Part shown: positions 23,307 through 58,463 of the stretch, in pieces
How the letters are laid out: each line of letters begins with the position of its first letter
Position numbering within the stretch: the stretch's first letter is position 1
Source of the DNA: Candidatus Peregrinibacteria bacterium
GTDB taxonomy: Bacteria > Patescibacteriota > Gracilibacteria > UBA1369 > UM-FILTER-53-11
Assembly: GCA_016186205.1 (NCBI GenBank)
Contig: JACPMA010000016.1
Span: 30,978 to 94,977 of the forward strand
Length of the DNA stretch: 64,000 nucleotides
Reading direction: 5' to 3'
Program-made: the position numbers and the translations under genes
Notes under the pieces: generated by a model
Database searches by the model: none
What the model saw: the letters and a program-made list of their open reading frames with translations, nothing else
What the model was told of the DNA's origin: nothing

Positions 23307-23307
23307 G

Positions 23308-25872: not shown

Positions 25873-25874
25873 AT

Positions 25875-27461: not shown

Positions 27462-27487
27462 ATCGGCTCATTACATCTTTGAACCGA

Positions 27488-27648
27488 GTTCCTTTCGTAT
27501 ACCGCAAGAGAAGGGAACCCAGCTGCCGACTCACATTCAGTTACCAACAAAGGCACCCGATAGCGAGTTGCTGGGTCCCCCTCCTTACCCGTTATCGGGA
27601 GGAAGGGATTTCCCCAGCCTTTGTAAGTAATACGAATTGTGAGTCGGC
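27488..27648. other. GC-rich, highly structured non-coding element inside the island (function unknown)
   Basis: Hairpin 27488-27496/27510-27518. Nested helices follow: GCCGACTCACA(27525-35)/TGTGAGTCGGC(27638-48), ACAAAGGC(27547-54)/GCCTTTGT(27617-24), CCCGATAGC(27556-64)/GTTATCGGG(27591-99). The only ORF here (27479..27745) looks spurious. Confidence 0.5.
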
Positions 27649-27744
27649 ATCGAAAATTCTACCACGCACAACAAATAGAAGCCAAAACCGAATTCATTTT
27701 TATCTCAAAAAACGCTATTATTGGCTTTGTTTAATGAAAAAGTA

Positions 27745-28938: not shown

Positions 28939-28989
28939 CAAGAAGATAACCAGAACTTAACCGTTGCAATTAGTTAGACTGACTTTGTC

Positions 28990-29008
28990 AGCCGTTCAGC
29001 GGCTTTTT
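28990..29008 (+). terminator. Rho-independent terminator-like hairpin
   Basis: AGCCG-ttcag-CGGCT followed by TTTTT, about 50 nt after the stop of the 27745..28938 gene. The stem is only 5 bp. Confidence 0.4.
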
Positions 29009-29158
29009 GACGTATCTAAATTATGGAAAGCCCCTACGAAAAATTAGTTGGTCGCAAACTTAAGCAGGAAGAGATTAAAAAAATGAGTTCTGATCTCGTG
29101 GGTTATTTCCAACTTTTAATCGCAGTCGACAGACAAACAACTGCCGACCTACTTAATT

Positions 29159-29473
29159 ATGAAAAAGAACGAAATCGTAATAACTGAAATTCAGATTGTG
29201 CCGATAAAGCCACAGGACGGGCTCATCGGTTTTGCAAGTTTCGTCCTGAATGGGTGCTTGTACCTAGGGTCGATCGGCATCCACACACGATTGGATGGAA
29301 GTGGGTTCCGTCTAACGTATCCCACAAAGGGTGCAATAAATATATTTCATCCAATCAACAAAGAAGTTTCCAAAGCAATTGAGGAAGCTGTTTTTGCTAA
29401 AGCTGAAGAAGTAATGAATTTTAACGATACACGTAATGATCGACACCGTGAGGCTGACTTTATTCAAAGATAA
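29159..29473 (+). CDS. SpoVG-like nucleic-acid-binding protein
   Basis: 104 aa. ITEIQIVPIKPQDGLIGFASFVLNGCLYLGSIGIHTRLDGSGFRLTYPTK...IFHPINKEVSKAIEEAV parallels the SpoVG core (recalled B. subtilis SpoVG). Confidence 0.6.
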   Translation: MKKNEIVITEIQIVPIKPQDGLIGFASFVLNGCLYLGSIGIHTRLDGSGFRLTYPTKGAINIFHPINKEVSKAIEEAVFAKAEEVMNFNDTRNDRHREADFIQR

Positions 29474-30578
29474 GTTCCGCATCTTCAAACCAGAGCTTTT
29501 TCATCCCCATGCTCACATTTTAGATGATCACATTCCTTATGGAGTACCCAAAGTCGATTGTTATCAAAATTCATCAAAAGCAGTCATCGCAAAAGGACTC
29601 TGCATGATAAAGCTCAGTGCAGTTAAACGCTTTGTTAAGGGTGGAGTTCAAACGACATTAACCGTGGAATTTTCGGCCCCGAAGCTAGTTTACGGAAACA
29701 ACCTTGATGAGCTTGAGCAAGGAGATTTTATTACAGTGCTAAAGATATTATGTAATCGCTTATCAAATGAAATGGGTGTTGTTGTAAGTGAAGAAGATCT
29801 GAAAGCAGCAACAGTCAGTGCAATACATTTTTCAAAAAACATTTCTTTTGTCGATTACACAACAGTAAATAGCATAATAAATTATACAAGGAAGATCAAT
29901 TTAACGAAAAGATTCGATCTAAATGAAACGAAGTTTCGCAATGAAGGATTAACTATTTATCATCACTCAAAATCTCTTCAATTTATTCTATACGATAAAA
30001 TCCGTGAGATGCAGAAGGTTAACGGAAGGGGAATCGAAGAAAATGTGCAATTGCATCTCGATATACTCGGTGAAGTAGAGAGTGCACACAAAGAACCTCT
30101 CGAAGTTTTACGGTCGGAACTTAGGATTTTGAAAAGACCCAAATTGAGGTCAATGTTGAAAAAAATTGGTGAACCCTACATAGAAACCTTCGAGGAATTT
30201 TTCAGTAAACGGCTTTCTCAAAAAATGCTTCAGCAATATTGGAATTTTATTATTGAAAAATTAAAACCGGTTATTTTTGCGGAAGATTTTACTCCACAAG
30301 AAGTTGTGAAATTAATATTACAGCAAAATCGACGAATCAAGCCTCAAGCTGCGTTGAGCTTGATCGGGATTTTTTACGCCATAAAGCACATAGGAATACG
30401 GCCGCTAAAAACAATGTTAAATACCTACTTTAATGCACGATCATGCAGCAGATTATTAAGCCAAATCAACGACTTTGAATTTCCTCAAAGCAGTCGATTT
30501 GAGCCATTTAACCATATTAGTAAGGCACTTTCAGAGTTTAAACCACTCAAAATGAAAGATTTGACCTTACCATTCTAA
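29436..30578 (+). CDS. Putative replication initiation protein (phage/plasmid gene II / Rep-like)
   Basis: 380 aa. The N-terminus MIDTVRLTLF resembles the MIDxLxL start of filamentous-phage/plasmid rolling-circle initiators. It sits between the SpoVG-like and recombinase genes. Weak assignment. Confidence 0.35.
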   Translation: MIDTVRLTLFKDKFRIFKPELFHPHAHILDDHIPYGVPKVDCYQNSSKAVIAKGLCMIKLSAVKRFVKGGVQTTLTVEFSAPKLVYGNNLDELEQGDFITVLKILCNRLSNEMGVVVSEEDLKAATVSAIHFSKNISFVDYTTVNSIINYTRKINLTKRFDLNETKFRNEGLTIYHHSKSLQFILYDKIREMQKVNGRGIEENVQLHLDILGEVESAHKEPLEVLRSELRILKRPKLRSMLKKIGEPYIETFEEFFSKRLSQKMLQQYWNFIIEKLKPVIFAEDFTPQEVVKLILQQNRRIKPQAALSLIGIFYAIKHIGIRPLKTMLNTYFNARSCSRLLSQINDFEFPQSSRFEPFNHISKALSEFKPLKMKDLTLPF

Positions 30579-30608
30579 CTTTATTATTATAATCTAACAT
30601 CATAATTT

Positions 30609-32147
30609 ATGAATGAAATTATTGAAAAAATATTGGAAAAATTAGCACTCGGATTAGCCCGAGTTTCAACCGAAGAGCAGGAAGATGGGCATACGATTCC
30701 CGCTCAAGTTCAGCGAATAAATGATTATGCAGCACAGAAAGGCCTAACCCTTGAAAAAGTTTTTGAGCTAACGGAATCGTCCACAAAAGCAGACAGGAAA
30801 AAATTCTGCGAGCTCTTTGAAATCATTAAACGCAGTAAAATTCCTGTAATTTTAATTGTTGAAACGGTGGACAGGCTGCAGCGTAGTTTTAGAGAATCCG
30901 TTGAGCTCGATGCTTTAAGAAAAGATGGAAAACTCGAAATCCACTTTTTACGAGAAAATCTTGTTATCAACAAGGATTCCAACAGCGTAGATATTATGCG
31001 CTGGGATCTCGCTGTTTTTGTCGCAAAGACTTACGTATTGCAGTTAAGCGACAATGTAAAACGCAGCTTGGAACAAAAGCTCCGCAACGGTGAATGGATT
31101 GGAAGAGCCCGCGTCGGATATTTGAACATTGATCTTCCGAACGAAAAGAAATCAGTAGTTCTTGATCCAGACAGGGCTCCACTCATAAAAAAAGCATTTG
31201 AATGGTATTCAACAGGGAATTATTCGACGAGCCAAATAACAACAATGCTTAAAGAGGCTGGACTCACCAATAATACGCCTAAGAAAGCCATCCTCAATAA
31301 AAGCACCGTAGCGGAAATGCTACAGGAACCTTTTTACTACGGTGAAATGAGGGTGAAGGGTAAACACTATCCTCATAATTATGAGCCTATTGTGGCACGT
31401 TGGTTATTCGACAAATGTCAGCAAGTACGTGAGGGCTGGCATAAAAAGCCTTTTAAGACTGGAGAAACTTTTTATGCCTTTAGAGGCCTAATTAAACACG
31501 ACTGCGGATGTTTACTCACTCCGTACACGAAAAAGGGAATTGTATATTTGAAGTGCTCGAAGTATCGCGGTAACTGCCAAGGGGTTAGTGTGAATGAAAA
31601 AGATTTGATTAAAGAACTTGCCGAGATTTTTCGTGTTATGCGTCCTCCAGATGATGTGGTGGAGGACGTTAAACAGCAATTACGCAGCAGCCATGAAAAT
31701 GAACAACGATTTTATGAGTCGAACATTCAACGTATCAACAAAGGACTTGCTACGATCAAACAGCGTTTCCAGCCCGCCTATGAGGACATGCTGGATGGCC
31801 GTATTACGAGGGACGAACACGACAAATTGGTGCAGAAATGGAAGCAGCAGGAAAGAGACCTCTTACTTCAACTTGAGGATCATTCAAAAGGGGATGAGCA
31901 GTTTTACATCACGGCTTCTTACCTGTTAGATATTTCAAAACGAGCACAGGAACTTTTCCTGCGTTCGCAACCGGAGCAAAAACGACAATTTTTGAATTTC
32001 GTACTTGCGAACTTAAGTTTGGAGGGCAAAAAGCTCGGCTACAAGCTGAAAGAACCATTTGCGGCTATGCACGAAATGGGTATTCGTATGAATTGGCTCC
32101 GGAGGTCGGACTCGAACCGACAACCCACTGGTTACACGAATCCTTAA
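30609..32147 (+). CDS. Large serine recombinase (integrase)
   Basis: 512 aa. Resolvase catalytic domain with LARVSTEEQ (catalytic Ser), recombinase domain, Cys-rich zinc-ribbon-like segment (CGCLLTPY...LKCSKYRGNC) and a coiled-coil tail. The last 54 nt overlap the tRNA-Asn 3' exon on the opposite strand. Confidence 0.85.
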   Translation: MNEIIEKILEKLALGLARVSTEEQEDGHTIPAQVQRINDYAAQKGLTLEKVFELTESSTKADRKKFCELFEIIKRSKIPVILIVETVDRLQRSFRESVELDALRKDGKLEIHFLRENLVINKDSNSVDIMRWDLAVFVAKTYVLQLSDNVKRSLEQKLRNGEWIGRARVGYLNIDLPNEKKSVVLDPDRAPLIKKAFEWYSTGNYSTSQITTMLKEAGLTNNTPKKAILNKSTVAEMLQEPFYYGEMRVKGKHYPHNYEPIVARWLFDKCQQVREGWHKKPFKTGETFYAFRGLIKHDCGCLLTPYTKKGIVYLKCSKYRGNCQGVSVNEKDLIKELAEIFRVMRPPDDVVEDVKQQLRSSHENEQRFYESNIQRINKGLATIKQRFQPAYEDMLDGRITRDEHDKLVQKWKQQERDLLLQLEDHSKGDEQFYITASYLLDISKRAQELFLRSQPEQKRQFLNFVLANLSLEGKKLGYKLKEPFAAMHEMGIRMNWLRRSDSNRQPTGYTNP

Positions 32148-32407
32148 ATTTCTTTAAGGGGTGGACTATATCTTTATCCGCAAAAGTGTGCACGTGCACA
32201 CTTTTGTGAGGACATCTTGGTATCTAGTCTCTACGGCGCCCCCTCACATTTTGCGATCCCGCAAAAGGCGAAGGGTTCCCACGGTATTACCCGGTCTGTA
32301 CGTACAGACTTTGGGCTTCACCGTTATCCCAAGAAGTTTCAACCTAAGTTGCCTTAGGAAGCTGCGTAATTTCACAGCCAGTTGCTCTACCATTGAGCTA
32401 CTCCGGA
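32094..32407 (-). tRNA. tRNA-Asn(GUU), split by a group I intron (exons 32374-32407 and 32094-32134)
   Basis: The joined exons give a 75-nt cloverleaf: UCCGGAG UA GCUC AAUGGUA GAGC A ACUGG CUGUUAA CCAGU GGGUU GUCGG UUCGAGU CCGAC CUCCGGA G CCA. U1-A72 and G73 match E. coli tRNA-Asn. Confidence 0.85.
32135..32373 (-). ncRNA. Group I intron (239 nt, no ORF)
   Basis: P1: exon GGCUGU pairs with intron GCAGCU, with a U.G wobble at the 5' splice site. P2 is CCUAAG-GCAA-CUUAGG. P3 is CUUGG/CCAAG. P4 is ACGGU/ACCGU. P6 is UUUUGCG-GGAU-CGCAAAA. Core GUAGAGACUAGA with P7 GACUA/UAGUC. P8 is a 13-bp hairpin. P9 is CCUUAAA-GAAA-UUUAAGG. The terminal nucleotide is G. Confidence 0.8.
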
Positions 32408-32464
32408 ATGATACGCACAAGAGGATGAAATCCTATTTGTGCGCTTTTACAATTAAGCGCGGCC

Positions 32465-33706
32465 TTATGGCCGCACCACCTTTACGAATCGTACAATCTC
32501 TCTTCCTACCACTGAATCTGGGCGTTCATATAAAAGAGAGGTCGTTTTTAAAGGAGCAAAAGTGGTTTTACTATAACCAAGACTTTCAATTTTCGCAACG
32601 ACATGCGAGGCGAGACTTTGTCGAGATGAGCCTTTTTTCCAATAAGGGAAAATAAAAACAACGGCTGTTTTTTTCGGCAGCCATTGCGCGAGGTTTTTGA
32701 AAAAATCCAAATATAATTTTTCAAGCTCGTCCATTAATTTTTTAAGAAAATTTTCCGCTGGGAATTGCGAAAGTGGGGGACCGAGAAACGGCTCGGTGAC
32801 CACGGCGAGCGAAAGCGAGCCGTTTTGCTGCTTGCCCCCCACGGGCGCTTTCGCAATAGCATCTGCGGCCGTAAGCGACCTTGCATCTTTTTGAAAAAGT
32901 TTTACATGCGTGTTCCCGGGCACACTTTTCGAAAACGTTTTTTGCAGCCAGTCAATGTTTTGGCGCGCGCCTTCAATGAGCCGCGCATCTTTATCGCTTC
33001 CAATTACTGAATATCCCATGAGCATGGCTTCCATTAAAATCGTGCCTGTGCCGCAAAATGGGTCGAGAATAGTAGCAGCCGAAGCAATCTCATTAGGGTT
33101 TGCGAGGTTTATCATAATTTGCGCTAATTTTGGCGGAAGCATGCCGACCGCAGGATCTCGAAACGGTTTTCCATAATCACGTTTTGAATAAGCCTCAAAA
33201 TCCTGCAGGGCGACCGTAGCGCCGAGCGTAACTTTTCCATCGCCCACATCGAGAATTCCGATATTTGTTTTGCTACCGATGAGCCCTTGTTTTGATGCAA
33301 ACACCGGACTGACATTTTGAAAATTCTTATTCATGAAATTTGCGCTGACGCCTTTCGCACGCAGATTTTTTTTCAGTCGCGTAAGCAAAAATTTCAACAC
33401 TTGTGATTTTTTATTTTCCGGCCAGAGATTGAGCGCAAACGCGCATTTTCCAGTATGCGCGCGAGATTGTTCCAGCAAAAATTTTTCAACATCATTAAGA
33501 ATATCCGCTTGAGGCAAATTTTCCGCAAAAATTTCCAGAATTTCCGTAGTGCCGCCGAGGCGATTCAAAAAATCCTGCGGTTTTTGCGGAAGTTCGCCGT
33601 CGAAAAAAATAGCATAATTTTTGCAAGAGCGAAGGCTTTGAAAAATCGCTCCAAGTTCAGCAATAGAAAGCTCCTGATTTCGCCCTAAGATAAACGCATA
33701 TTTCAT
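32465..33706 (-). CDS. Putative RNA methyltransferase (UPF0020/Trm11-like SAM-dependent MTase)
   Basis: Start moved to ATG 33706 (MKYAFILG...). SAM motif I DPFCGTGTILMEA, DKD acidic loop, and a motif IV-like VVTEPFLG. Lies 58 nt upstream of tRNA-Asn on the same strand. Confidence 0.6.
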   Translation of the reverse strand: MKYAFILGRNQELSIAELGAIFQSLRSCKNYAIFFDGELPQKPQDFLNRLGGTTEILEIFAENLPQADILNDVEKFLLEQSRAHTGKCAFALNLWPENKKSQVLKFLLTRLKKNLRAKGVSANFMNKNFQNVSPVFASKQGLIGSKTNIGILDVGDGKVTLGATVALQDFEAYSKRDYGKPFRDPAVGMLPPKLAQIMINLANPNEIASAATILDPFCGTGTILMEAMLMGYSVIGSDKDARLIEGARQNIDWLQKTFSKSVPGNTHVKLFQKDARSLTAADAIAKAPVGGKQQNGSLSLAVVTEPFLGPPLSQFPAENFLKKLMDELEKLYLDFFKNLAQWLPKKTAVVFIFPYWKKGSSRQSLASHVVAKIESLGYSKTTFAPLKTTSLLYERPDSVVGREIVRFVKVVRP

Positions 33707-33842
33707 ATCAAGTGCCAAAATGACATAAAGGCCAGTCCGGCACAAATCGAAAAACAAAAATTACCCTTCCGCGAATCTTTGATTCTATATATAAATAAAG
33801 CAATTGATAATTCATCATTCGTAATTTATTAATTCGTTCTAT

Positions 33843-34325
33843 ATGGCATTCTCTCTTAATCGCGCTCAACTCATCGGCAATGTGACTCGCGCTCCGGAAG
33901 TGCGTCTTGCCGGCGGCCAGAAAGTCGCCACCTTCGGCGTGGCCACAAATTTTTCATGGAAAGATCAAACCGGCCAGCGCAAGGATAGGGCTGAATTCCA
34001 TAATATTGTGGCGTGGCGAAAACTCGCGGAAATTTGCGAACAATATCTGCATAAGGGAAGCAAAGTATATATAGAGGGACGGATTCAGACGCGCGATTGG
34101 GAAGGGGAGGACGGCGTGAAGCGATATCGGACGGAAATTGTGTTGGACAATATGATTATGTTGGATAAAAAAGGAGATGCCGTTTCTGCGCCTATTTCAA
34201 ATGATGATGAACCGGCGGATCAGCCAGCAGATCGGCCGCAACGTAATATAAAGGTGGAGAAAAAGACCGCTAAAGAAGAGCAGCCACAGGAAGAAGAGGT
34301 TTCTATAGATGATTTGCCTTTTTAG
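33843..34325 (+). CDS. ssb: Single-stranded DNA-binding protein
   Basis: OB-fold N-terminus (NRAQLIGNVTRAPEVR...FHNIVAWRKLAE), acidic tail ending DDLPF. Confidence 0.9.
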   Translation: MAFSLNRAQLIGNVTRAPEVRLAGGQKVATFGVATNFSWKDQTGQRKDRAEFHNIVAWRKLAEICEQYLHKGSKVYIEGRIQTRDWEGEDGVKRYRTEIVLDNMIMLDKKGDAVSAPISNDDEPADQPADRPQRNIKVEKKTAKEEQPQEEEVSIDDLPF

Positions 34326-35795: not shown

Positions 35796-36044
35796 ATGGT
35801 CGATCCAGTATTACTCGAAAAACTCAAGCAATTCATCCAGTCTTCCGTCAGTTTGACCGCTGACGCAAAGCAGGAATGGCTCAAGGCGGCTGAAAATTTT
35901 TCTGATGAACAAGCAAACAAGCTCATCGCTATTTTTGAAAATGAGCAGAAAAAAATAAAAGAAGCGGGAGATGATTATCTCCAGGATCAGGACCTCTTAG
36001 CGAATGAATTTTTGATAGTTCTCCCATCACTTACCAAAATATGA
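35796..36044 (+). CDS. Small hypothetical protein
   Basis: 82 aa. Its stop overlaps the ATG of the next gene (ATGA at 36041-36044). Confidence 0.45.
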   Translation: MVDPVLLEKLKQFIQSSVSLTADAKQEWLKAAENFSDEQANKLIAIFENEQKKIKEAGDDYLQDQDLLANEFLIVLPSLTKI

Positions 36045-39000
36045 GTCCAGGATTTGAACAACTGAGGCCATCAATTGAAGGCGCTGATCGACGCATCGAC
36101 GCTGGCAAAACAAACGTAAATTTATCTAAAGTTGAGGCAGAGTTTAAAAAAGTCGAGGGTCACGCAAAGATGCAGACAGATCCAGCGCTCCGCGAAAAAT
36201 ATGAAGCTATACTGCGAGAGCAGCGCGCTAGATTTGAGGCGCTACAAGATGGTAATGACCAAAAGCATCTTGATGCGTTGCGAGCCGCTGTGAGAGGTAC
36301 GCTCGTAGCGCTTGATGATTTTGTTTATGAAAACGGGGATTTTTTACAAATGAATTATTCCAGGCAATATGCGGAAACTACCGGTGTAGCGAGTGTATAT
36401 GCGGCATGGAGAAAAGAAAGTAATGTTGCATTTTCGACATTGGCGCATATTATCAAAGCCTATCTTCCAGGCGTTGGATCATATGGCAGCGAGAAGTACC
36501 GTCAGGCAGTTTTTCTGTTTTTAAACCAACGGCAAGGTGGAGCGCAAGGTCATGGCGCGCCGTATGATATTTCAAGAATCCATGATGCTGCCGAATGGAC
36601 TCGAGCAGAAGCGGAATTGCGTAAAATCAAAGTAGGAGAGGAATTCGATTTTTGGAAAGTTCGCGTGGCTTTGAATCAGCCGATTTCAAGACCTCCGACA
36701 TTGCCGCAAGCGGCCGCTGACGGAGGACCGATTCCGGATCTCGTTCCCCTCGTGCCACCAGTTCGACGTAGAGAAAGATCTGCCGGTGCGCCTGCAGCTG
36801 TACCCACAGCTCGGCCTGCACCTGCACCTGCATCAGCACCTGCCGCTGGGCCTACAGAAGAGGTAGCGCTGACTTCCCATGAACAAGTCGCGCTTAACTC
36901 TTTTTCGCAAGGAATTGAAAAAGCTTTCAGGGCCCTCCAATCCGCAGGAGAAAATGGAGAAGCGATTCAAAGGGCTCTTCGCAATATTAAAGCCCAAGCC
37001 GATGATATTGCTCTTTACGGAAAACAAAATCCGACCTCAAATGCTCTGCCAAAACTGCGCATCATGCGTATGCAGTGCGAAGCGTTTTTAACCCAGGCTG
37101 GCCTTGCACTTCGTGCCGGACAAGCCGATCAAATAGCAAAAGGCGCGCGCGAAGATACGCATGGTTTTTGGTCCAATCTCCGCGTCTTGAATGCCATTCC
37201 AAAAATGTATCGAGCCACAACGGGCGATCAAGATACTTTAACGTATTCCGAAGCTCGCTCCCGAGTTATGGATATGCGAACCCGTGAAGTTTCTCGTGCA
37301 GCAAAAGGCGCTGAAGTCGTATTTACCGCTCTATCAAAAGAGCCGCCAATCACCATGCAGCAAATTCGAGGCATGGGGCCAAAAAGATTGGTTGATGCAG
37401 GACTAGCAACAGCTGAAAAAGCAAATGAAATTCATTCAGCAATCCAAAATTTTTTTACGTCGCCTGAAGGTCGAAGACTTGCAGCCATTGATGAAAATCG
37501 TCTTACGGCCGAACTTGATCAGCGACTTGCCAGAGAAGCGCTTCGAGTTGAGGAAGGAACGGTTTTGGGGGTTTCACAGGCGAAGTGGGAAAGAATGGGA
37601 GACGTAAGTTCATCGCTAGCAAGTCTCGATTTATTTCTCCTTCCAGGAGGCGGTATGCTTCTTGGAAAATTGGCCGCGAGATCGGCGCTTGCTGTGCGAG
37701 CGGCTGCTGCAGCGGCAAAAGGTTTTGAAGCTGCAAAAGCAGTGAGGGGAGCGGGCCTTTTGATTCGCGCTGGAGAAAAATTCGTAACATGGAGCCCCCA
37801 AGAATTTAAAGCTTTGCAAGCAGCGGAAAAAGCCGGCCGCGCCGTGAATGTTGCTAAGGCCCTTGCGCGCGGCACGCTCACGGTTGGAACGTCACTTGTG
37901 AAATTTACCGCTGCGACAGCTGCCGCAGAGGCACTTGTTCCTGGCTCCGGACATCTCGTTCTGGCCTCATGTTTCCTCGTGCCTGGCGCCGTGAAAGGTT
38001 TCAGCGAAGCCGTCGGAAAAAATGTATCAGAAGCTTTTGCTCTAGCCGGCGGAAATATGACAGTAGGTCAAATGCCGGAAATGACGCGGGCCTATTTACT
38101 CTATTTGCGAAACACGCAGACGCAGGCTGCGCTTGCGCGAAATCTTCAAGGTTCTCTGCAAAAAGGCGGTATGGCTGCTGCGGAGGCGGAAAAAGCCGCC
38201 AGCGCATTCTCAAAAGATCTCTTTGAAGGACAAACCGGACGCGAGCTTGAGGGTCTTGCATCGCGAAAAATAGGACTAGCTGGAAGAGTGAAGGAATATG
38301 TCAAAGCGCGGAGAGAAATGGTTCGACCTACGCTAGAACGCGGTATACCAGTGAAGTCGGAAGCATTAAGAAATAGTGATCTTCAAGATGCTGCAGTGAA
38401 ATTAAGAGAGGCTCTTGGACCAATCGGTAAGATCGATAAGCTTCCAGCAGCTATTTGGAATAGATTAAGCGCAGACGCGCGGCAGACAGTTACTGATTTC
38501 ACAAGTGCATGTCAGAACATTTCTGGCGCTGTGCGGAAAGGAATGAATATTTCAGGTGAGTGGATCGCAGCGCGTAGACAAGAACTTACTGCTCTTCGTG
38601 CAAAGATAAATAGTTTACCTCGGGAGGCGCAGCAATGGGCTATTGCACAATGGGAAAGATTCAGCGCTGGATTTGAAAATGTTCTTGCCGCTCGACGAAG
38701 GTATAATACAGTTCGGCGGGCAGCACAGCAACAAGAGGGAGGATTGGCAGGAAAGGTTGGTGGTATTCCTGAGAGATATAGGCCAAGATTAGCAGAAGCA
38801 CGAACTACATTGAGTAAGGATTTAGGGGTAGATAAGCTTTTGAGCGGCGTTGGAGTTGCAAGAAAAGTATTGGCGCCAAAAATTCAAGCAGCCATTGATG
38901 GATTTGTTGCTGCAAGGAGAGGAGTAGTGTTAGTTTTGCAAAGTGGGAAAAAAATCACAGGAGACGCTCTTAGAACAGTCTTGAGTGGCATTAAAACTAT

Positions 39001-40909
39001 GGTGGAACATTTAAACGGTCTTACAAATGGACCGAGACAGCTATGGAAAAATGCTTTTCAAGAGCTCAAGAATGTCTGGCAGGCAGCCAAAGGATATCAT
39101 GAAGCGAGAGGTATATTGCAGGAAGAAGCCGCGAAATTGCGACTTAATACGCCGACAGGATCAACTGTATTATCAGCGCTTTTGCATAACGAAGAAGGAA
39201 GAGTTGCCAAAGCCGCCGCTGAATTACGAAGGGCTCTTGGGCCGATTGGACAAATTGATAAAATTCCTGCGAAAATTCGAGCTATGCTGTCTGAAGACTT
39301 AAGGAAAACTGTTGCAGATTTTGCCGGAGCTTATAATAGAGCTGTTGAGCTTGTTCGTGGTGGAGTGAAAATATCTCGCGAGCAGGTCGGAGGATTTGTT
39401 ACAATGCGAAGAGGCGAGTTAACACAATTATGGAAGAGGATAAGCGGACTTCCTACTGCAGCGCAGGCCTGGGCGAAGACGCAATGGGCGAAATTGAGCA
39501 ACCCACTTGAGCGATTTGCTGATAGCTGGAAAGCGAAAGGCGTACAAGTAGCCGATGCGACAGAAGAATATTTAGCAGCGAGGAGATTACTAAGAGGAGC
39601 GAAGGAAGGTGGAGGGACAGTTGGAATAGCGAGACAGGCACCAGGAGTGGAGGCAGCAGGGAGAGAATTACAAGAAGCATTAGGAGTTCACCGGATTGTG
39701 GCATTACCTGGAAGACTTCGTACTGCATTGAGTGCGGATATCAGAAAGACCGTCGAAGATTTTGCCGGAGCCTATAATAGGGTGGCCGAAGCAATGAGGG
39801 GTGGGCTTAATATATCGAGGGAGAAGGTTGGCGAGTTTATAACAGCCCGGAGAGGAGAATTAATGCAATTATGGAAGAGCATCAGCGGATTACCAGCGGT
39901 TGCGAGAGGATGGGCTCAAGCACAGTGGTTGAAATTGAGCAACGTGGTAGAAGGATTTGTTAGAACAGCGAGAGGACGAGGAGAACGAATTGCGAGAGCT
40001 CCAAGGGAATATTTAGAAGCAAGAAAAGCACTTAGGGCAGCTGAAGAATTTGAAAGACCAATTAGAGAAATGAATCTTGAGGACCGACTCGGTATACCTG
40101 GTCTGGAGAGTGGAGCTCAAAGAAGATTAGCAGCGGCTAGGGTAAAATTTGAGGTAGCGCAATTCAGGCTATGGAGAGCATCGGGTATAGATGCAATTAT
40201 CACGCTTCCTGAAAAGTTAAGAACGAACGTCGGAGAGGCAGGGGCAGCAATTCTCCAAAGACTCAATGCGGTTCGTGAGAGTGTTGGAAAAGGGCTTTCG
40301 GTACCACTTAAAGAGGCTTCGACTTGGATTTCAGCACGCAGGGGAGAATTATCGAGCCTGTGGGGAACGATACAGAGTCTGCCTGGAGGTCTACAGAAAT
40401 GGGCAGCGAGTCAGTGGATGAGGTTGAGTAATGTCGTAGAAGGATTTGCAACAATGGTAAAAGGAAAAGGGGAGAGAGTAGCCAATGCTACCGGAGAATA
40501 TATGTTAGCGCGAAAAGCGGTAAGAGCAGCCGGTAAAGTAGAAGGCGGAGTATTGTCTGGAGGAACTGTTCGACTCGCCGCAGAAAAGAGAGCGCTTGAG
40601 CGTGCGCGCGTTGCATTCGCCGATGCCATCGGTTTAACCCAACTTAAATCTTTAGCAAATACGGCTATTCTCGGATTGAAAGAAGGAACTCAAAAAGCCG
40701 TCCGTGCGCTCGTGACTGACACGAATGCATTTGTTGAAAAATACGCCGGTGTAAAGCAGGCAATAGGTATAAAATCAGCAGCTTTTATAGCTGAAGTAAG
40801 GAAACTCCAGGCTCATATCGGTGAATTAATGGGTGAATTGCCGGACGACAGCCCACTCCGACCTTTGCTTGCAGCAACTGGTGAACGTTTGGGAAATATG
40901 TTGAAGTAG
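36041..40909 (+). CDS. Giant Ala-rich repeat protein (1622 aa), function unknown
   Basis: Long uninterrupted ORF. Pro/Ala linker (ARPAPAPASAPAAGP) and central hydrophobic segments. Five to six divergent repeats of about 125-135 aa (ALGPIG.IDK.PA...DFAGAYNR...ARRGEL.QLW..ISGLP..A..WA..QW..LSN) spanning roughly 38400-40880. Confidence 0.75.
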   Translation: MSPGFEQLRPSIEGADRRIDAGKTNVNLSKVEAEFKKVEGHAKMQTDPALREKYEAILREQRARFEALQDGNDQKHLDALRAAVRGTLVALDDFVYENGDFLQMNYSRQYAETTGVASVYAAWRKESNVAFSTLAHIIKAYLPGVGSYGSEKYRQAVFLFLNQRQGGAQGHGAPYDISRIHDAAEWTRAEAELRKIKVGEEFDFWKVRVALNQPISRPPTLPQAAADGGPIPDLVPLVPPVRRRERSAGAPAAVPTARPAPAPASAPAAGPTEEVALTSHEQVALNSFSQGIEKAFRALQSAGENGEAIQRALRNIKAQADDIALYGKQNPTSNALPKLRIMRMQCEAFLTQAGLALRAGQADQIAKGAREDTHGFWSNLRVLNAIPKMYRATTGDQDTLTYSEARSRVMDMRTREVSRAAKGAEVVFTALSKEPPITMQQIRGMGPKRLVDAGLATAEKANEIHSAIQNFFTSPEGRRLAAIDENRLTAELDQRLAREALRVEEGTVLGVSQAKWERMGDVSSSLASLDLFLLPGGGMLLGKLAARSALAVRAAAAAAKGFEAAKAVRGAGLLIRAGEKFVTWSPQEFKALQAAEKAGRAVNVAKALARGTLTVGTSLVKFTAATAAAEALVPGSGHLVLASCFLVPGAVKGFSEAVGKNVSEAFALAGGNMTVGQMPEMTRAYLLYLRNTQTQAALARNLQGSLQKGGMAAAEAEKAASAFSKDLFEGQTGRELEGLASRKIGLAGRVKEYVKARREMVRPTLERGIPVKSEALRNSDLQDAAVKLREALGPIGKIDKLPAAIWNRLSADARQTVTDFTSACQNISGAVRKGMNISGEWIAARRQELTALRAKINSLPREAQQWAIAQWERFSAGFENVLAARRRYNTVRRAAQQQEGGLAGKVGGIPERYRPRLAEARTTLSKDLGVDKLLSGVGVARKVLAPKIQAAIDGFVAARRGVVLVLQSGKKITGDALRTVLSGIKTMVEHLNGLTNGPRQLWKNAFQELKNVWQAAKGYHEARGILQEEAAKLRLNTPTGSTVLSALLHNEEGRVAKAAAELRRALGPIGQIDKIPAKIRAMLSEDLRKTVADFAGAYNRAVELVRGGVKISREQVGGFVTMRRGELTQLWKRISGLPTAAQAWAKTQWAKLSNPLERFADSWKAKGVQVADATEEYLAARRLLRGAKEGGGTVGIARQAPGVEAAGRELQEALGVHRIVALPGRLRTALSADIRKTVEDFAGAYNRVAEAMRGGLNISREKVGEFITARRGELMQLWKSISGLPAVARGWAQAQWLKLSNVVEGFVRTARGRGERIARAPREYLEARKALRAAEEFERPIREMNLEDRLGIPGLESGAQRRLAAARVKFEVAQFRLWRASGIDAIITLPEKLRTNVGEAGAAILQRLNAVRESVGKGLSVPLKEASTWISARRGELSSLWGTIQSLPGGLQKWAASQWMRLSNVVEGFATMVKGKGERVANATGEYMLARKAVRAAGKVEGGVLSGGTVRLAAEKRALERARVAFADAIGLTQLKSLANTAILGLKEGTQKAVRALVTDTNAFVEKYAGVKQAIGIKSAAFIAEVRKLQAHIGELMGELPDDSPLRPLLAATGERLGNMLK

Positions 40910-44802: not shown

Positions 44803-47800
44803 ATGTCGCCTCCGGAAAAGAGAGAAGGCCGAAAAATCCATGAAGGCCGAAGAACGGATTATAAACGCGATACAGAAGAATTGCAGCGCGAGCAGTTTCT
44901 TGATGAATCGCGGCGCGATCGCGAACGCCTGAAAGGCAAGATTGAGCAACCGGAGCAAAAACTTGCCAAGGAAGTCCGGGAATCTTTGGAAACAAGAGTG
45001 CCAGATGCTGTAGATCGCGAAAAAGTCTATCGCCTCATGAGCGTTTATGAATTCATCCCGTCTTCGCAGACTGAACTCGGTTTTTTTCTTCACGACCTAG
45101 AAATTCTAGAATATCAGCCTGCCATGCTTTTTTATGAATTTTTGAGCCATGAATTCGGATATAAATTTGAACTTACTTTTCCGCGAGTAGTCAAAGACCT
45201 CATAAACTATGAGAATCTGCAAATGAAATTTCAGATGGCGGAAATTGAAGTTTCTCTTTCCGGCAGTGATGAAAAGATGCGTGAATTCGATGAAAAACGG
45301 AATACCATTATGAATACTGTATTGACGCGAATTTTCGTCGAAGCGCGCCGTCGTTACGGAACGGGTTTTTTCAAAAACAGCGCTCAAAAATTTCGCGATC
45401 ACTATCAAATTCCGCTTTCAGCATCAGGTCTTTTGCTCTATTTTGGTTTGTTTGATGATAAGGATAAAAAGCCCGATACAGCGTCACTTCTTTCTGTCGA
45501 TCAACATGCCGTTCAGGAAAAAATCGGGCCGCTTTTTCAAGGAAATGAAATGCTGTGTATTTTATATTCCGTCCATAAGCCGAAAGAATTTGAAGCTATG
45601 GTAGCGGTCGCTCAAACCCTTAAGCGCCATACTAAATATGAACCGCTTGATAAGTATGTTTTTGAAGTATTTGGTTCCATAGAAAACCTTCCGGATTTTC
45701 TCGCTTTTTGGAATTGGATTGAGTATGAATTTTTACAGAATGGCCCGCTTACTTTGCGATCCGCTGATGATTTGCTTGAACAGTGGAATAAGCTTAAACC
45801 GGCCAAATGGGATAAAACAACAGCGAACCGCATACGCGACGTTTGGAAGGAATGCGGAATTGCCGCAACGAGGCCGGAGTTCCTTACGCATATCGCCGAT
45901 TATTATTGGTCTGATGAAGAAATGGAAGCTCTGCGTTCCATCAAGAAACAACATTCATTCCGCTGGAACGAGAATCTTTCAGTAAACATGCTCCATAAAG
46001 ATATTCGAGAAATTCTTAAAAAAGGTTTGTTGGCGCGCATCGCGGATCCGCAGAATGCGCCTCTTTACCGCGCTGCGGCAAATTATAAATATGATCCCCA
46101 AGCTCCGCTGGAAAATTTGCATAATTTTCTCGAGACCGAAAAGGGCATAGCGGTGCTTGAAAAAAAAGATCCAAACGCGAGAAATATTTTACAAGTTCTC
46201 GGCAGAACTAATGTGCCACTTAACGCAGTTGCCAGACTTGCCTCTGGTATAACCCAAAAAGTCCTTGAGAATCTCGGCGCCTCTTCGCCGATTTTGACTA
46301 TCGTGCACCGTTTTGCCGAAAAGCCGGATCTCATTCATGCATGGGAAAAACTTTGTCAAAATTACCAGTGGGATGAACTTGAGCTGGGTCATCTTGAATA
46401 TTGGCTTGATCTTCCCGATGAAAAACAGAAGCAGCTTGTAAATTCAGAACATATCGCCCGCGTGCGTATGCTCCGGCAAACGTATCATTTTAAAATCAGT
46501 CCGCCGATACTCATTACTTTTATGAATGATTTTGAATCGGATGAAAATTTCCGAAAACAGATCAGCGTTCTTTCCTCGAAGCCATGTCAGGGATTTTTTA
46601 AAAAGTATGGAACGCTTTTTGCGGAATCCAATTTGATGGATGAAACATGGCAGCAGGATCGCCTCCTTGATATAGTTAAATTTTTTCAAAAACAAAAAAC
46701 CGACAAACGGTTCCTTCGTTGGGCAAAACGGTGGAAGGATGCCGGACAAGGAGTGGACTCCGTTTTTATGGGTGATGAAAGCCAATCTTCTTTGGCTGTT
46801 TTGGATCGTCCGGAATTTCCGCGGCTTGTTGCCGTATGTAAAATTCTAAAAATCGAAATGGGTTCTATAAGCAATCTGGCAAGGTTAGTTAACCATGTGG
46901 CAACTTTGGAGAAAAAAGAATTCTCCGGCTTTCTGGATACGATGGAGCGCATTTATGGCGTGACGCATGAATTTTATATGCTTGATGATCTTGCAAAAAT
47001 CTTTGAAGATACGCAAGCGCGCGCCTTTTTTACAAATCCGGATGTCCAGAATTTTTATCGCAAACTCCAAACATACGGCTATTCATTCGAAGAGCGAAAC
47101 TACATGCCTTTTGAGGAACGTTACAAAAAATTGCGAGGTTTATATGAAACAAAAGGTCTTTTTGAAGCCATTGAGCGGCTTGGAAAAGCTTACGGAATGG
47201 ATGTGCAAAAATTGGCTGGAGAGGCGGAAGAAGAGGAAAATGGAGGAGGAGTCTTCGGGAGAATTTCGAATATGATGATGCCTGGAATTGAGACAAGGGG
47301 ATTTGATTTTATGTCCGAGCTTAAAGTGCTCGTTGAACAAGGCGATTTTGAACTGCTCGTTGCGCCGGAGACCGTCGAATTCGTGAAATTTTGCGAGAAG
47401 ACTTATGGCTATCAATTTTCTCTTTTGAATATGAGTTCCTTGATGACGGTTGTAAAAAGTCCAAGGCTCAAGGCGGCCGTGCGCGATCCTCGACTTCCAG
47501 AGGTTATCAAGCGTTTAGGTAAACGCATCGAACTTAGATTTAGTTTTAATGCACTCGACCTTTTTGTCGATATTATGGATCACGAAAAAGAATTTGAAGA
47601 GACCATGGATCTTTTGGAGCAGCAGTACGCTTATCGTCTTAAAGATCCAGGCGATTTGTTTTTTATCGTTGATCTTTTGGGCAAGGAAGCAGTTATTGAG
47701 AAATTAAAGAGTAAAACATTCCAGGAAATGATCGGGGCGCTTAAAAAAGAGCAGAAGTACAAATTTGAAGTGACGGATATGTATGCGCTCATTTACCTTG

Positions 47801-48951
47801 ATGACCATCGAGGATTAACCGAAAGTATCTATGATTCTAAAATGGAAGATTTTGCAGAGCGGATTTTCGGAAAACGTTTTGGGAATAATCTTGCCGCGCG
47901 CATTAAATTTTTTGAGGTTTATAAAGATGAGACAAAACGCCGCAAACTCGATTCAGAAAATTTCCGAAGCACGCAAGAACAGCTTCGCCGCGAGATCGGT
48001 ACCACGGCTGGAGCGGATGACGCGGACGGCCTCCTTTTGTGCATGAATCATCCGGAAGTTTTTTCTTTTTTGAAAGCGGTAAATTTTAGAATTCGTCTTT
48101 TTGATTATCAAGCCGTGAATTTTTTCGATGCCATGCCGAGCTTAATAACCATGGCTCGTCTCCATGCAGAAAAATATATCGATGTACTTAAAAAAACCGC
48201 AAAAGGGTGGTGGTATGATTTCAATCCTCTTGACGGAGCTGCATGGGAAAAAATCATTGATAAATATCCAAGCTTTTATGGTTTTTCCGTAGATGCGCAA
48301 GCTTTGCAAAAGCGCATCGGCGAGCGCAGCATATCGGCAAACGATTTGTATATCGGTTTGCTTTTGGGCGAACGATTGTCATTCGACCGTTCTGCGCTGG
48401 AGCAGGAGTTAAAGGAACCTTTTAAGGACGATATTCATCGAGTTGATTCGAATTTTGACAGTTATCGTTCATACAATGATTTGTCGAAATTTTCAGTCAT
48501 GCAGCTAAATAAAATGCGGCTCATTAGGCAGTGGCTTGCTTTGGAAAAGGCAAGAAAAGAAGTTGGTACTTTTATCCGCCGCGATGTTCAGCAATATCCG
48601 TATACCGAACTTGGTTCGGTGATAGTTATCAAGCCGAATGGCGACATAGAAAATCATGAATATCCGCCGAAACTCCATTTCCAAAACGGATCGTATGCTG
48701 CTCCGGCCGAGGCGAAAAACGAACACGCGGTGTCGCTCGCAATCTCCCATCTCCACGCTCTAAAATTCAATCAAGGCAATCATGCCGGCCCGAGCGGAAG
48801 CCGATTTTCCATTGGCGGCGACATTTCCGTGGCTCGCATTGAAGAGCGCGATTCGGTCGTCATGACATCTCTTTCCGAAAATCAGTTTGCCGTTCATTTT
48901 TATACGGCCTCCGGCGACGTCGCGTTTCTCGGACGGTTTGAATATAAGTAA
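44803..48951 (+). CDS. Giant hypothetical protein (1382 aa) with a possible C-terminal JAB/RadC-like metal-binding motif
   Basis: Long uninterrupted ORF. Recurring helical modules (..YGY.F.., ..YKFE..). The C-terminal SHLHALKFNQGNHAGPSGSRFSIGGDI loosely resembles HxH...PSxxD of JAMM/RadC domains. Confidence 0.7.
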   Translation: MSPPEKREGRKIHEGRRTDYKRDTEELQREQFLDESRRDRERLKGKIEQPEQKLAKEVRESLETRVPDAVDREKVYRLMSVYEFIPSSQTELGFFLHDLEILEYQPAMLFYEFLSHEFGYKFELTFPRVVKDLINYENLQMKFQMAEIEVSLSGSDEKMREFDEKRNTIMNTVLTRIFVEARRRYGTGFFKNSAQKFRDHYQIPLSASGLLLYFGLFDDKDKKPDTASLLSVDQHAVQEKIGPLFQGNEMLCILYSVHKPKEFEAMVAVAQTLKRHTKYEPLDKYVFEVFGSIENLPDFLAFWNWIEYEFLQNGPLTLRSADDLLEQWNKLKPAKWDKTTANRIRDVWKECGIAATRPEFLTHIADYYWSDEEMEALRSIKKQHSFRWNENLSVNMLHKDIREILKKGLLARIADPQNAPLYRAAANYKYDPQAPLENLHNFLETEKGIAVLEKKDPNARNILQVLGRTNVPLNAVARLASGITQKVLENLGASSPILTIVHRFAEKPDLIHAWEKLCQNYQWDELELGHLEYWLDLPDEKQKQLVNSEHIARVRMLRQTYHFKISPPILITFMNDFESDENFRKQISVLSSKPCQGFFKKYGTLFAESNLMDETWQQDRLLDIVKFFQKQKTDKRFLRWAKRWKDAGQGVDSVFMGDESQSSLAVLDRPEFPRLVAVCKILKIEMGSISNLARLVNHVATLEKKEFSGFLDTMERIYGVTHEFYMLDDLAKIFEDTQARAFFTNPDVQNFYRKLQTYGYSFEERNYMPFEERYKKLRGLYETKGLFEAIERLGKAYGMDVQKLAGEAEEEENGGGVFGRISNMMMPGIETRGFDFMSELKVLVEQGDFELLVAPETVEFVKFCEKTYGYQFSLLNMSSLMTVVKSPRLKAAVRDPRLPEVIKRLGKRIELRFSFNALDLFVDIMDHEKEFEETMDLLEQQYAYRLKDPGDLFFIVDLLGKEAVIEKLKSKTFQEMIGALKKEQKYKFEVTDMYALIYLDDHRGLTESIYDSKMEDFAERIFGKRFGNNLAARIKFFEVYKDETKRRKLDSENFRSTQEQLRREIGTTAGADDADGLLLCMNHPEVFSFLKAVNFRIRLFDYQAVNFFDAMPSLITMARLHAEKYIDVLKKTAKGWWYDFNPLDGAAWEKIIDKYPSFYGFSVDAQALQKRIGERSISANDLYIGLLLGERLSFDRSALEQELKEPFKDDIHRVDSNFDSYRSYNDLSKFSVMQLNKMRLIRQWLALEKARKEVGTFIRRDVQQYPYTELGSVIVIKPNGDIENHEYPPKLHFQNGSYAAPAEAKNEHAVSLAISHLHALKFNQGNHAGPSGSRFSIGGDISVARIEERDSVVMTSLSENQFAVHFYTASGDVAFLGRFEYK

Positions 48952-48953
48952 TA

Positions 48954-49811
48954 ATGTACAATGTTGTTATGAAGAAGCGGTTTTTCATAGTGCTAGGTAT
49001 ATTGGGCGCTCTGGCAATAATTTCCGGATTTTTCTTCCGCGTCGAGATAAAAGAGTCAGTTGAATCTTTTTCAAAGCTCTCCCTTCCAGAGCCGAAAGCA
49101 GTCACGGAATTTCAAAAGCAAGAATCAGCTCCAACAACTACTCCTGCAGAAATTTCCCTCAAAAAACCCTCAACCCTAGGCGCGAGCGAAGCGAGTGCTA
49201 AGCAATTAAATCGCCCGAAGGGCGAAACCTTAAACCCTAAACCCTCAACCCTCGCAATAAATCTTAATATTCCTTTTGCTTCCCAAGCTCCATTCGGCAA
49301 CTGGGATTTGCCGTATCAGGAAGCCTGCGAAGAAGCAGCGGCCATCATGGTGCACCGTTATTTTTCCGGAGAACCGCTTGATCCTGCGACCATGGACGGT
49401 GAACTCAAAAAACTAATCGCATGGGAAGAAAAAACATTCGGCTACTATAAAGACACCACTGCGGAAGAAATTGCCCGCATGCTGCGGGAATATTTTGGGC
49501 ACAGCGAAGTGGAAGTACAGTACGATTTTACGATTGAAGATGTGAAAGCGGCTCTGCAAGAGGGCCATCCTGTGATTCTTCCGGCAGCCGGCCGGCTTCT
49601 TCCAAATCCATATTTTCGCGATCCGGGGCCCGTTTATCACGCGCTTGTAGTAAAAGGGTTTATCGGCGAAAAAATCATCACAAATGATCCCGGTACGCGC
49701 CGCGGCAAAGATTTTCTCTACGATCCGGTAGCACTTCTGAATGCCGTGCATGACTGGAATGAGGAAAATATTTTGAAGGGCCGGAAGGTTATGATTATCG
49801 TTAGAGAATAG
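48954..49811 (+). CDS. Membrane-anchored C39-like cysteine peptidase family protein
   Basis: Alternative ATG at 48969 (MKKRFFIVLG...). TM anchor, low-complexity linker, then PFASQAPFGNWDLPYQEACEEAAAIMV and C-terminal HALVVKGF..ITNDPG, typical of Peptidase_C39_2-like proteins. Confidence 0.6.
   Translation: MYNVVMKKRFFIVLGILGALAIISGFFFRVEIKESVESFSKLSLPEPKAVTEFQKQESAPTTTPAEISLKKPSTLGASEASAKQLNRPKGETLNPKPSTLAINLNIPFASQAPFGNWDLPYQEACEEAAAIMVHRYFSGEPLDPATMDGELKKLIAWEEKTFGYYKDTTAEEIARMLREYFGHSEVEVQYDFTIEDVKAALQEGHPVILPAAGRLLPNPYFRDPGPVYHALVVKGFIGEKIITNDPGTRRGKDFLYDPVALLNAVHDWNEENILKGRKVMIIVRE
49179..49231. repeat. Copy of the repeat family inside the C39-like peptidase gene (in frame), flanked by 14-bp direct repeats
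   Basis: GGCGCGAGCGAAGCGAGTGCTAAGCAATTAAATCGCCCGAAGGGCGAAACCTT. Direct repeats AAACCCTCAACCCT at 49164-49177 and 49239-49252. Confidence 0.75.
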
Positions 49812-49929
49812 AGGCCAAGTGTGCTGCCATGCATTTTTTCAAACATTTTGGCACGCTAGGCCGCGGGATCGATCCCGCGGCCTAGCGTGCCAAAATGTTT
49901 GAAAAAATGCATGGCAGCACACTTGGCCT
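49812..49929. repeat. Perfect 118-bp palindrome (59-bp arms, no spacer) filling a convergent intergenic gap
   Basis: Arms 49812-49870 and 49871-49929 are exact reverse complements, checked base by base. It starts 1 nt after the TAG of the C39-like gene and overlaps the murJ stop codon by 2 nt. Confidence 0.95.
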
Positions 49930-58321: not shown

Positions 58322-58349
58322 TTGACGCTTATTTTGAGATGGCTATACT
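58322..58349 (+). promoter_or_regulatory. Sigma-70-type promoter of the groES operon
   Basis: TTGACG (58322-58327), 16-nt spacer, TATACT (58344-58349). Confidence 0.6.
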
Positions 58350-58374
58350 AGCACTCGCTTATTGAAAGTGCTAA
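58348..58374 (+). promoter_or_regulatory. CIRCE operator (HrcA binding site)
   Basis: CTAGCACTC-N9-AAGTGCTAA against the consensus TTAGCACTC-N9-GAGTGCTAA (2 mismatches). Overlaps the -10 element upstream of groES. Confidence 0.8.
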
Positions 58375-58376
58375 CA

Positions 58377-58430
58377 GGCGCGAGTGAAGCGAGTGCCTAA
58401 GCAAATAACGCGCCCGAAGGGCGCAACCTT
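58377..58430. repeat. Intergenic copy of the repeat family in the groES leader
   Basis: GGCGCGAGTGAAGCGAGTGCCTAAGCAAATAACGCGCCCGAAGGGCGCAACCTT. Contains the hairpin GCGCCC-GAA-GGGCGC. Non-coding here (in-frame TAA). Confidence 0.75.
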
Positions 58431-58463
58431 GTATCCTTAATATCCTTTAACTCTTTAATTTAT

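Follow-up and report, generated by a model that had tools for sequence, protein, structure and literature searches.

A 75-bp in-frame segment in a C39-like peptidase gene of Peregrinibacteria as a probable member of a small family of dispersed two-hairpin repeats

In a Candidatus Peregrinibacteria genome, a gene for a C39-like peptidase contains a 75-bp in-frame segment; what is this segment, and how did it come to be there? We addressed this question in a window of 64,000 nucleotides (nt) from GenBank assembly GCA_016186205.1 (contig JACPMA010000016.1, positions 30,978 to 94,977), the whole stretch of DNA to which coordinates refer unless a relative is named. A preliminary description had viewed the segment as a short repeat inserted in frame, flanked by a 14-bp direct repeat and resembling the Rickettsia palindromic elements (RPEs). 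Our analysis favors, with a probability of about 0.7, the reading that the segment is one copy of a lineage-restricted family of dispersed repeats of ~54 nt, each forming two hairpins and acting at the nucleic-acid level. The family is dispersed, conserved as nucleic acid, present or absent at orthologous sites, and tolerated in frame. The locus comprises the following features.

48954 to 49811, plus strand: host gene encoding a membrane-anchored C39-like peptidase (Peptidase_C39_2; NCBI start at 48969)
49164 to 49177, plus strand: left copy of the 14-bp direct repeat AAACCCTCAACCCT, encoding KPSTL
49178 to 49231, plus strand: 54-nt repeat element, an A-type copy
49179 to 49199: 5' hairpin of this copy (outer stem GGCGC/GTGCT, tandem G.A/A.G, inner GC-GAA-GC)
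Between the 5' and 3' hairpins: linker TAAGCAATTAA
49211 to 49225: 3' hairpin TCGCCC-GAA-GGGCGA, then the tail AACCTT
49232 to 49238, plus strand: extra AAACCCT heptad, from the element to the right repeat copy
49239 to 49252, plus strand: second (right) copy of the 14-bp direct repeat, made up of the final two units in a four-unit heptad array (49225 to 49252)

Both copies of the 14-mer stand at the positions first reported. The sequence has no other occurrence in the window, and no recurrence is expected from 100 dinucleotide-preserving shuffles; a heptad-shifted copy with one mismatch lies at 49232-49245. The two exact copies bracket the 54-nt repeat, within which the originally quoted 53-nt string maps to 49179-49231, and one extra heptad. 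The added stretch (49178-49252) measures 75 nt, equal to 25 in-frame codons, and the translation of the open reading frame (ORF) across it, ...SLKKPSTL-GASEASAKQLNRPKGETLNP-KPSTL-AINL..., agrees with the claim that the frame is kept between paired KPSTL motifs. The predicted read-through peptide of the element is GASEASAKQLNRPK.

The product of the C39-like ORF is 100% identical to MBI2639031.1 from a Candidatus Peregrinibacteria metagenome-assembled genome (MAG). A MAG as the source leaves room for an assembly or binning artifact in which a repeat was chimerically inserted into the contig, as repeats can mis-join contigs. However, the gene with its insert is identical in five independent Logan assemblies from different runs, a second copy of the repeat (in an A2M-like gene, described below) recurs in three, and the reading frame is intact through the insert. 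Given its presence in five independent assemblies, the insert is not an assembly artifact, and the chance of a chimeric origin is negligible. Within the protein, the insertion spans residues 76-100, approximately, between the N-terminal helix and the catalytic domain, in a hypervariable linker that is repetitive and rich in Pro, Ser, and Thr. AlphaFold renders residues 55-97 as coil with a predicted local distance difference test (pLDDT) score below 50. Together, the hypervariability of the linker and its low-confidence coil suggest that the insert sits in a tolerant region. The closest orthologs (72-75% identity) are 241-261 amino acids (aa) long versus 285 aa in the window and lack the peptide, as do 15 further orthologs; altogether, it appears in 0 of 19 aligned sequences.

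The repeat is not confined to this gene. Nine copies were found in three sources: the window genome, the MAG of Patescibacteria group bacterium H32-bin004 (JBBTWV01), and contig OBEQ012265814. Three full copies lie in the window (49178-49231, 58376-58430, and 4090-4140). A pattern scan of 185,579 species-representative genomes returned four further copies, all in H32-bin004, and a pattern scan of 241 million metagenome records returned one more; a profile search of the sequences gathered added a ninth, decayed copy, also in H32-bin004. The 3' half of the C39 copy is identical over 32 nt to an intergenic copy in another genome. A pattern scan of viral contigs gave 0 copies. No copy with up to six substitutions was present in the syntenic loci of the closest relatives, none occurred in the P0107 locus from Hainich groundwater, and Logan contigs reaching 3.2 kb beyond the left window end held no new one. 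At the protein level, a 57-column tripled profile of the 19-aa peptide, run against a database of 5.8 billion proteins, yielded 8000 candidates, none at E ≤ 10. The family is real but rare and narrowly distributed.

Two other exported-protein genes in the window had been proposed as hosts. One, the A2M-like gene, indeed carries a copy, whereas the other, a Memo-like gene, offers only a short match:

2426 to 2440, plus strand: 15-nt match to the 5' end of the element, AGGCGCGAGCGAAGC, at the signal-peptide end of the Memo-like gene (E about 0.003)

The family profile did not recover this match at E ≤ 100; it may be a decayed remnant or a chance similarity, and we treat it as unproven. Nor are hosts limited to exported proteins, given that the copies in H32-bin004 involve a UvrD-like helicase, a YfiH/PgeF-like enzyme, and the tail of TrpGD.

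Whether such copies were added to preexisting sequences can be judged from orthologous loci. Besides the C39-like gene, whose closest orthologs lack the segment, two sites in the window are informative, and both are empty in relatives.

3652 to 9003, plus strand: A2M-like ORF (1783 aa) with a B-type copy; element by homology at 4090 to 4140
4093 to 4146, plus strand: insert absent from A2M-like orthologs, 54 nt or 18 codons (PSHSEAKQITRPQGATAW), between FSIK and PEIEG
58348 to 58374, plus strand: CIRCE operator CTAGCACTC-N9-AAGTGCTAA, the left arm of which can pair with AAGCGAGTGCC of the element
58376 to 58430, plus strand: non-coding copy in the 5' untranslated region (UTR) of groES, an A-type 5' hairpin with a B-type 3' half

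Nine representative orthologs of the A2M-like protein (54-30% identity), retrieved by an exhaustive search of representative proteins, read FSI[T/E/N]-PExEG without a gap where the window protein has 18 additional residues. The empty site is crisp, with ≤2 nt of identity at the junctions. The 3' half of this copy matches the groES copy at 97% identity; the 5' hairpin is a variant form. The same ORF also encodes a Hint/intein-type domain (PT-HINT; CFLPGT...VHND), so that the gene has received two unrelated insertions. The groES copy, reported earlier as near-identical DNA in a non-coding context, is full, with 89% identity over 55 nt (E 3e-10), and lies 1 nt past the CIRCE operator and 35 nt ahead of the groES ATG. 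In relative L010, the groES leader is empty, with ...AAGTGCTAAT and then TTAATC... straight after CIRCE.

Several further observations concern this leader. Another relative, L012, has a different insert at the same post-CIRCE point (8122-8171 of its locus), built from two hairpins with GNA loops (AGCTGC-GCA-GCAGCT and AGCGGC-GTA-GCCGCT), each with TTTCTCC after it; a hot spot is one possibility suggested by this, several hairpin-repeat families in the clade another. The A-type 5' hairpin contains a right half-site of CIRCE (GAGTGCTAA in the copy at 49178 and GAGTGCCTAA in the groES copy). Across 58348-58398, the predicted fold (-36.7 kcal/mol, z -3.3) joins the left arm of CIRCE to the element through a 10-bp stem, in place of the right arm of the operator. 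Such pairing could affect control by HrcA, or it could be a coincidence.

What is conserved among the copies is a modular structure. In order, the modules are a variable 5' hairpin, an invariant linker CTAAGCAAWTAA (CUAAGCAAWUAA), a second hairpin of 6-7 bp (GCGCCC-GNA-GGGCGC), and the tail AACC. Lengths range over about 51-64 nt, typically about 54 nt or 18 codons, and reach 91 nt in a composite copy (L014). The outer stem of the 5' hairpin is GGCGC/GUGCC or GGCC/GGCU, with a symmetric tandem G.A/A.G mismatch in most copies. The inner stem-loops differ yet all pair, as GC-GAA-GC, GC-CACA-GC, GCCCCCGC-TCA-GCGGGGGC, or UCCCC-AAGC-GGGGG. In the composite copy, which lies in an rpsP leader, Watson-Crick pairs replace the tandem mismatch and extra hairpins are intercalated. 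The outer pair of hairpin 2 is G:C in five copies and U:A in three, while the six core pairs are unpaired in no copy. In coding copies, the outer-pair switch alters two amino acids (T/N and A/E). Since the two positions switch together yet change the encoded residues, the constraint is on pairing, that is, on the nucleic acid, and not on the peptide. The repeated exchange of the inner 5' stem for other self-complementary sequences is a stronger structural argument than the covariation in hairpin 2.

These results bear directly on the proposal that the segment is a linker peptide (KPSTL..AKQLNRPKGET..KPSTL), duplicated or convergent at the protein level, with the similarity in DNA being secondary. 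The coding copies do share AKQ[IL]xRPxG[AE]T, and the C39 linker is itself a repetitive, Pro/Ser/Thr-rich tract. This proposal is contradicted by four of the nine copies, which are non-coding, one of them antisense; it also has to contend with the 32-nt identity to an intergenic copy of another genome, with paired substitutions that keep the hairpin while changing amino acids, and with the absence of the peptide from every aligned C39 ortholog. We therefore consider it very improbable, and the preliminary inference that conservation lies at the DNA level is borne out.

Folding also differs between strands. A-type copies, which have G.U pairs, fold 3-7 kcal/mol better on the plus strand, and for B-type copies the two strands are equivalent. 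Read on the minus strand, hairpin 2 and the UUAUUUGCUU that follows it score as a weak intrinsic terminator. A ribozyme, riboswitch, or other known RNA was rejected for lack of Rfam support: the best matches of the element in Rfam 15 have E 0.5-8, far under the gathering threshold, and the only matches elsewhere in the window are a tRNA and a group I intron.

The genomic contexts of the nine copies, on which all statistics given here rest, are diverse. Five are coding, three lie in 5' UTRs in the sense orientation, and one is antisense between trpB and trpA. The coding hosts are the C39 linker, a loop in the N-terminal domain of the A2M-like protein, a YfiH/PgeF-like enzyme, a UvrD/PcrA-like helicase, and the tail of TrpGD, where the copy supplies the C terminus and stop codon just before the trpC ATG. 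The leader copies precede groES, purF, and rpsP, ending 35, 9, and 3 nt ahead of the ATG, respectively, and the antisense copy fills the trpB-trpA spacer exactly. In the trp operon of H32-bin004, the two junction copies are a decayed sense copy, which provides the last ~17 codons and stop of trpGD, and the intact antisense copy (4917-4966 and 7773-7838 of locus L002). Non-coding copies are over-represented, at four of the first eight versus 13% of the window being non-coding (P about 0.013).

All five coding copies are sense and share one frame, giving the peptide ..(S/H)EAKQ[IL]xRPxG[AE]T... Of the three frames that are open in the element, one is sense and two are antisense; if all were equally likely, five of five copies in the sense frame would have P = (1/3)^5, about 0.004 (0.012 for the first four copies). 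The peptide of the sense frame is hydrophilic and rich in Pro and Gly, whereas the antisense frames are hydrophobic and contain Cys. The simplest reading of the shared frame is selection for the hydrophilic peptide. The three window copies are also all on the strand of positive GC skew, the lagging-strand template, although three copies are too few for significance and gene orientation is a confounder.

Position and orientation also invite an explanation at the RNA level, whereby the element is a functional module (a stabilizer in 5' UTRs or between cistrons, a processing site, or a terminator-like hairpin on the opposite strand) that was recruited repeatedly because it is useful, the coding copies being tolerated by-products. 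This would suit the sense orientation of eight of nine copies, the three leader copies ending 3-35 nt from an ATG, and the two copies at junctions of the trp operon. It would also suit the G.U pairs and tandem G.A mismatches that favor structure on the sense strand, the terminator-like hairpin 2 and UUAUUUGCUU of the minus strand, and the different two-hairpin insert that a relative carries at the same groES position. Peregrinibacteria have been classed as Shine-Dalgarno (SD)-scarce (PMC10783764), so a structure beside the start codon need not displace a ribosome-binding site. Yet the element matches no Rfam family, the orthologous genes of close relatives do without it, and its hosts are functionally unrelated. 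The sense bias of the coding copies is equally well explained by selection for a hydrophilic, stop-free frame, and a useful RNA would account for retention but not for arrival at new sites. As the principal explanation, an RNA module appears unlikely; an RNA-level role is nonetheless a live alternative that does not exclude a mobile repeat.

How the C39 copy arrived turns on the 14-bp repeat, which had been taken for a target-site duplication. One argument for this is comparative. The linkers of the two closest orthologs (L012 and L013) carry the motif CTCAA[CT]C once, at the same offset, the window carries it twice, and deletion of 49178-49252 in silico renders the window colinear with both. 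Combined with the exact flanking of the element by AAACCCTCAACCCT, this agrees with a remnant of a cut-and-paste or copy-and-paste transposon resembling a miniature inverted-repeat transposable element (MITE), for which a staggered cut would have duplicated a 14-bp target. Casposases yield duplications of 14-15 bp. The other copies speak against a transposon of this sort: at the A2M site, the added DNA is exactly 54 nt and flanking identity does not exceed 2 nt, and neither the groES copy, judged against L010, nor any of the remaining six has a flanking repeat. An extra heptad precedes the right repeat copy, and Tandem Repeats Finder resolves 49225-49252 as four AAACCCT units, the first of which is the 3' end of the element itself. 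Because this slippage-prone array starts inside the element, slippage may have contributed to the 14-bp repeat. Terminal inverted repeats are lacking (AGGCGCGAGC at the 5' end shows no complementarity to ..GGGCGAAACC at the 3' end), and no transposase was found in the window. A transposon remnant is thus a possible but minority explanation. The repeat behaves as a target-site duplication at the C39 copy only and is not a property of the family; that it arose in the insertion event is about an even bet, and that it marks a transposase with a fixed stagger is improbable.

Left flanks give little indication of a target. They end in CAACCCT, CTAAC, CAATC, CAACCATG, CTACC, TTTCC, and ACTTT, a loose CAACC-like tendency that was defined after the fact and amounts to no fixed target; the pentamer resembles the 3' end of the element, which was likewise noticed after the fact. 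A duplicated AACC target was rejected, as AACC is invariant in the copies and the left flanks are only loosely similar. The 3' flanks of the two A-type copies in the window contain short tandem duplications (the heptads at 49225-49252, and TATCCTTAA/TATCCTTTAA at 58434-58453). A template/variable-repeat pair of a diversity-generating retroelement was also rejected, the differences not being adenine-specific and the copies not being located at C-terminal lectin folds.

Several points weigh against the dispersed-repeat reading itself. A same-species allele with an empty site was not found, and the case for movement therefore comes from interspecies comparison. Copy number is low, with three copies per 64-kb window, five in the H32 MAG, and one in 241 million metagenome records. 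Covariation is thin, given that hairpin 2 has a single compensated pair that possibly reflects one event. Across copies, terminal inverted repeats are absent, and neither a conserved target in the flanks nor a consistent target-site duplication is seen. With eight of nine copies in sense and several abutting start codons, the bias could reflect an RNA-level function. Finally, the hairpin-binding transposase that had been envisaged did not appear in the window: Pfam scans of 30 window ORFs detected no Y1/HUH transposase, REP-associated tyrosine transposase (RAYT), reverse transcriptase, or Cas1. Homology and synteny annotation of most other window ORFs gave no mobilizing enzyme, and the H32 MAG flanks examined look like housekeeping genes.

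We nevertheless favor the dispersed repeat. Its copies have been added at unrelated places, among them 5' UTRs, operon gene junctions, and the loops and linkers of coding sequences. The family would spread as selfish or near-neutral DNA, with purifying selection filtering the genic copies so that the survivors would have a length of 3n nt, use the single sense frame, and fall in a surface loop, linker, or tail; this frame is stop-free and would add a hydrophilic Pro/Gly peptide (..SEAKQ[IL]xRPKG[AE]T..). The substrate for mobilization is most likely the hairpin form of the strand that is sense at eight of nine copies, on which an enzyme encoded outside the window presumably acts in trans, much like the REP/RAYT and IS200/IS605-derived systems; alternatively, insertion could have been mediated by repair or template switching. 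The C39 copy landed in the disordered linker after the membrane anchor, where it is read through and adds 25 residues, and the 14-bp flanking repeat would be a by-product of this single event or of heptad slippage. A bolder version, which we find distinctly doubtful, is that the element is an active, ultra-small (18-codon) mobile hairpin module of Candidate Phyla Radiation (CPR) bacteria belonging to an undescribed class. It would move through a single-stranded, sense-strand intermediate by means of an HUH or casposase-like enzyme, considered because of the one 14-bp duplication, or by template switching. Such modules would have been domesticated as 5'-leader or intercistronic RNA in SD-poor genomes and would also remodel surface loops of conserved proteins.

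Among known systems, RPEs come closest in behavior. These interspersed elements of Rickettsia occupy intergenic and protein-coding DNA, with in-frame coding copies and no known transposase (PMC1779305; PMC10969869). Like RPE-1 to RPE-10, the element occurs in coding and non-coding DNA, inserts into genes in the same frame, adds a conserved peptide to unrelated proteins without destroying them, forms hairpins, and proliferates in a lineage-specific manner. The resemblance first proposed thus holds for behavior, but membership in the family fails on size, architecture, and phylum. RPEs measure 100-150 bp and form one long palindrome, whereas the element spans ~54 nt with two unlike hairpins and a single-stranded linker; the host belongs to the Peregrinibacteria/Patescibacteria rather than the Rickettsiales, so that sequence homology to RPEs would not be expected, and far fewer copies were seen.

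Other families share some traits. Repetitive extragenic palindromes (REPs), with the related BIMEs and REPINs, are short (20-40 nt), GC-rich, imperfect hairpins located between operon genes and in UTRs, for which orientation matters and which RAYT (Y1 HUH) transposases mobilize; a single-stranded hairpin is believed to be their active form, with effects on mRNA stability. Whereas REPs by definition lie outside genes, five of nine copies of the element lie inside ORFs. REPs carry a 5' GT[AG]G; the element starts with AGGC(G)CGAG and shows neither GTAG nor inverted doublets. REPs further occur in hundreds of copies, often as inverted pairs beside a RAYT gene, none of which was seen here. Prokaryotic MITEs (ERIC, Correia/NEMIS, Coxiella QMITE1, and Anabaena MITEs) occasionally form in-frame fusions with host ORFs (PMC10969869) and, like the element, are non-autonomous dispersed repeats whose transcripts contain stable stem-loops. 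They differ in having terminal inverted repeats, a fixed-length target-site duplication, and usually 100-400 bp; in the element, terminal inverted repeats are missing and one copy only (49164/49239) is flanked by a repeat. Palindrome-associated elements (PATEs), derived from IS200/IS605, resemble it in having sub-terminal hairpins at both ends, no inverted repeats, no target-site duplication, and strand-specific behavior, in keeping with the window copies all being on the positive-GC-skew strand. Insertion of PATEs requires a TnpA and occurs 3' of a fixed tetra- or pentanucleotide; no TnpA was found in the window, and the left flanks bear only a loose CAACC-end resemblance. The element therefore represents a new, small family of dispersed hairpin repeats tolerated in frame, with RPE- and REP-like behavior, and no new category of system. 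Full-text literature searches yielded no description of such elements in Peregrinibacteria, Patescibacteria, or CPR bacteria.

Several neighboring features merit description in their own right. A perfect 118-nt palindrome (49812-49929; 57-nt arms around TCGA) exactly fills the spacer from the stop of the C39-like gene to that of murJ, which converges on it; the corresponding genes of relatives have a 23-nt overlap and no palindrome. Logan contigs end inside it, four of five at 30 nt (k-1) and the fifth at 25 nt, the behavior that a genuine palindrome should show in a de Bruijn graph. The sequences examined contain no second copy, and the palindrome may be either a bidirectional terminator or another palindromic insertion, unrelated to the first. 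Directly upstream of the C39-like gene, a 1382-aa ORF without a Pfam domain (44803-48951, plus strand) is missing at the syntenic locus of L010, where an OTCase gene stands instead; a 1622-aa ORF at 36041-40909 (plus strand) also has no Pfam domain. The region of about 18600-34300 has a GC content of 0.37-0.41, versus about 0.45-0.48 elsewhere, and looks like an integrated mobile island. Its genes encode an AbiEii-like nucleotidyltransferase, a HipA-like kinase, type III restriction Res and Mod proteins, another methyltransferase, SSB, a weak Phage_CRI-like replication initiator (29436-30578), and a large serine recombinase (30609-32147). The group I intron, a full-length match to RF00028 (55.5 bits) at 32142-32384 on the minus strand, has the serine recombinase gene on one side and a methyltransferase gene on the other and is not in an rRNA or tRNA gene.

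For the biology of these organisms, the finding means that CPR bacteria with small genomes carry selfish or semi-domesticated hairpin repeats that can be written into coding genes without killing them, as in Rickettsia, and that such repeats add loops and linkers to conserved proteins. For annotation, they account for lineage-specific inserts of 18-25 residues and for odd structured leaders in Peregrinibacteria genes. With its 54-nt size and modular 5' hairpin, the element offers a compact test case for how repeats spread without a transposase of their own and for whether they are co-opted into mRNA leaders where SD-based initiation is lacking.

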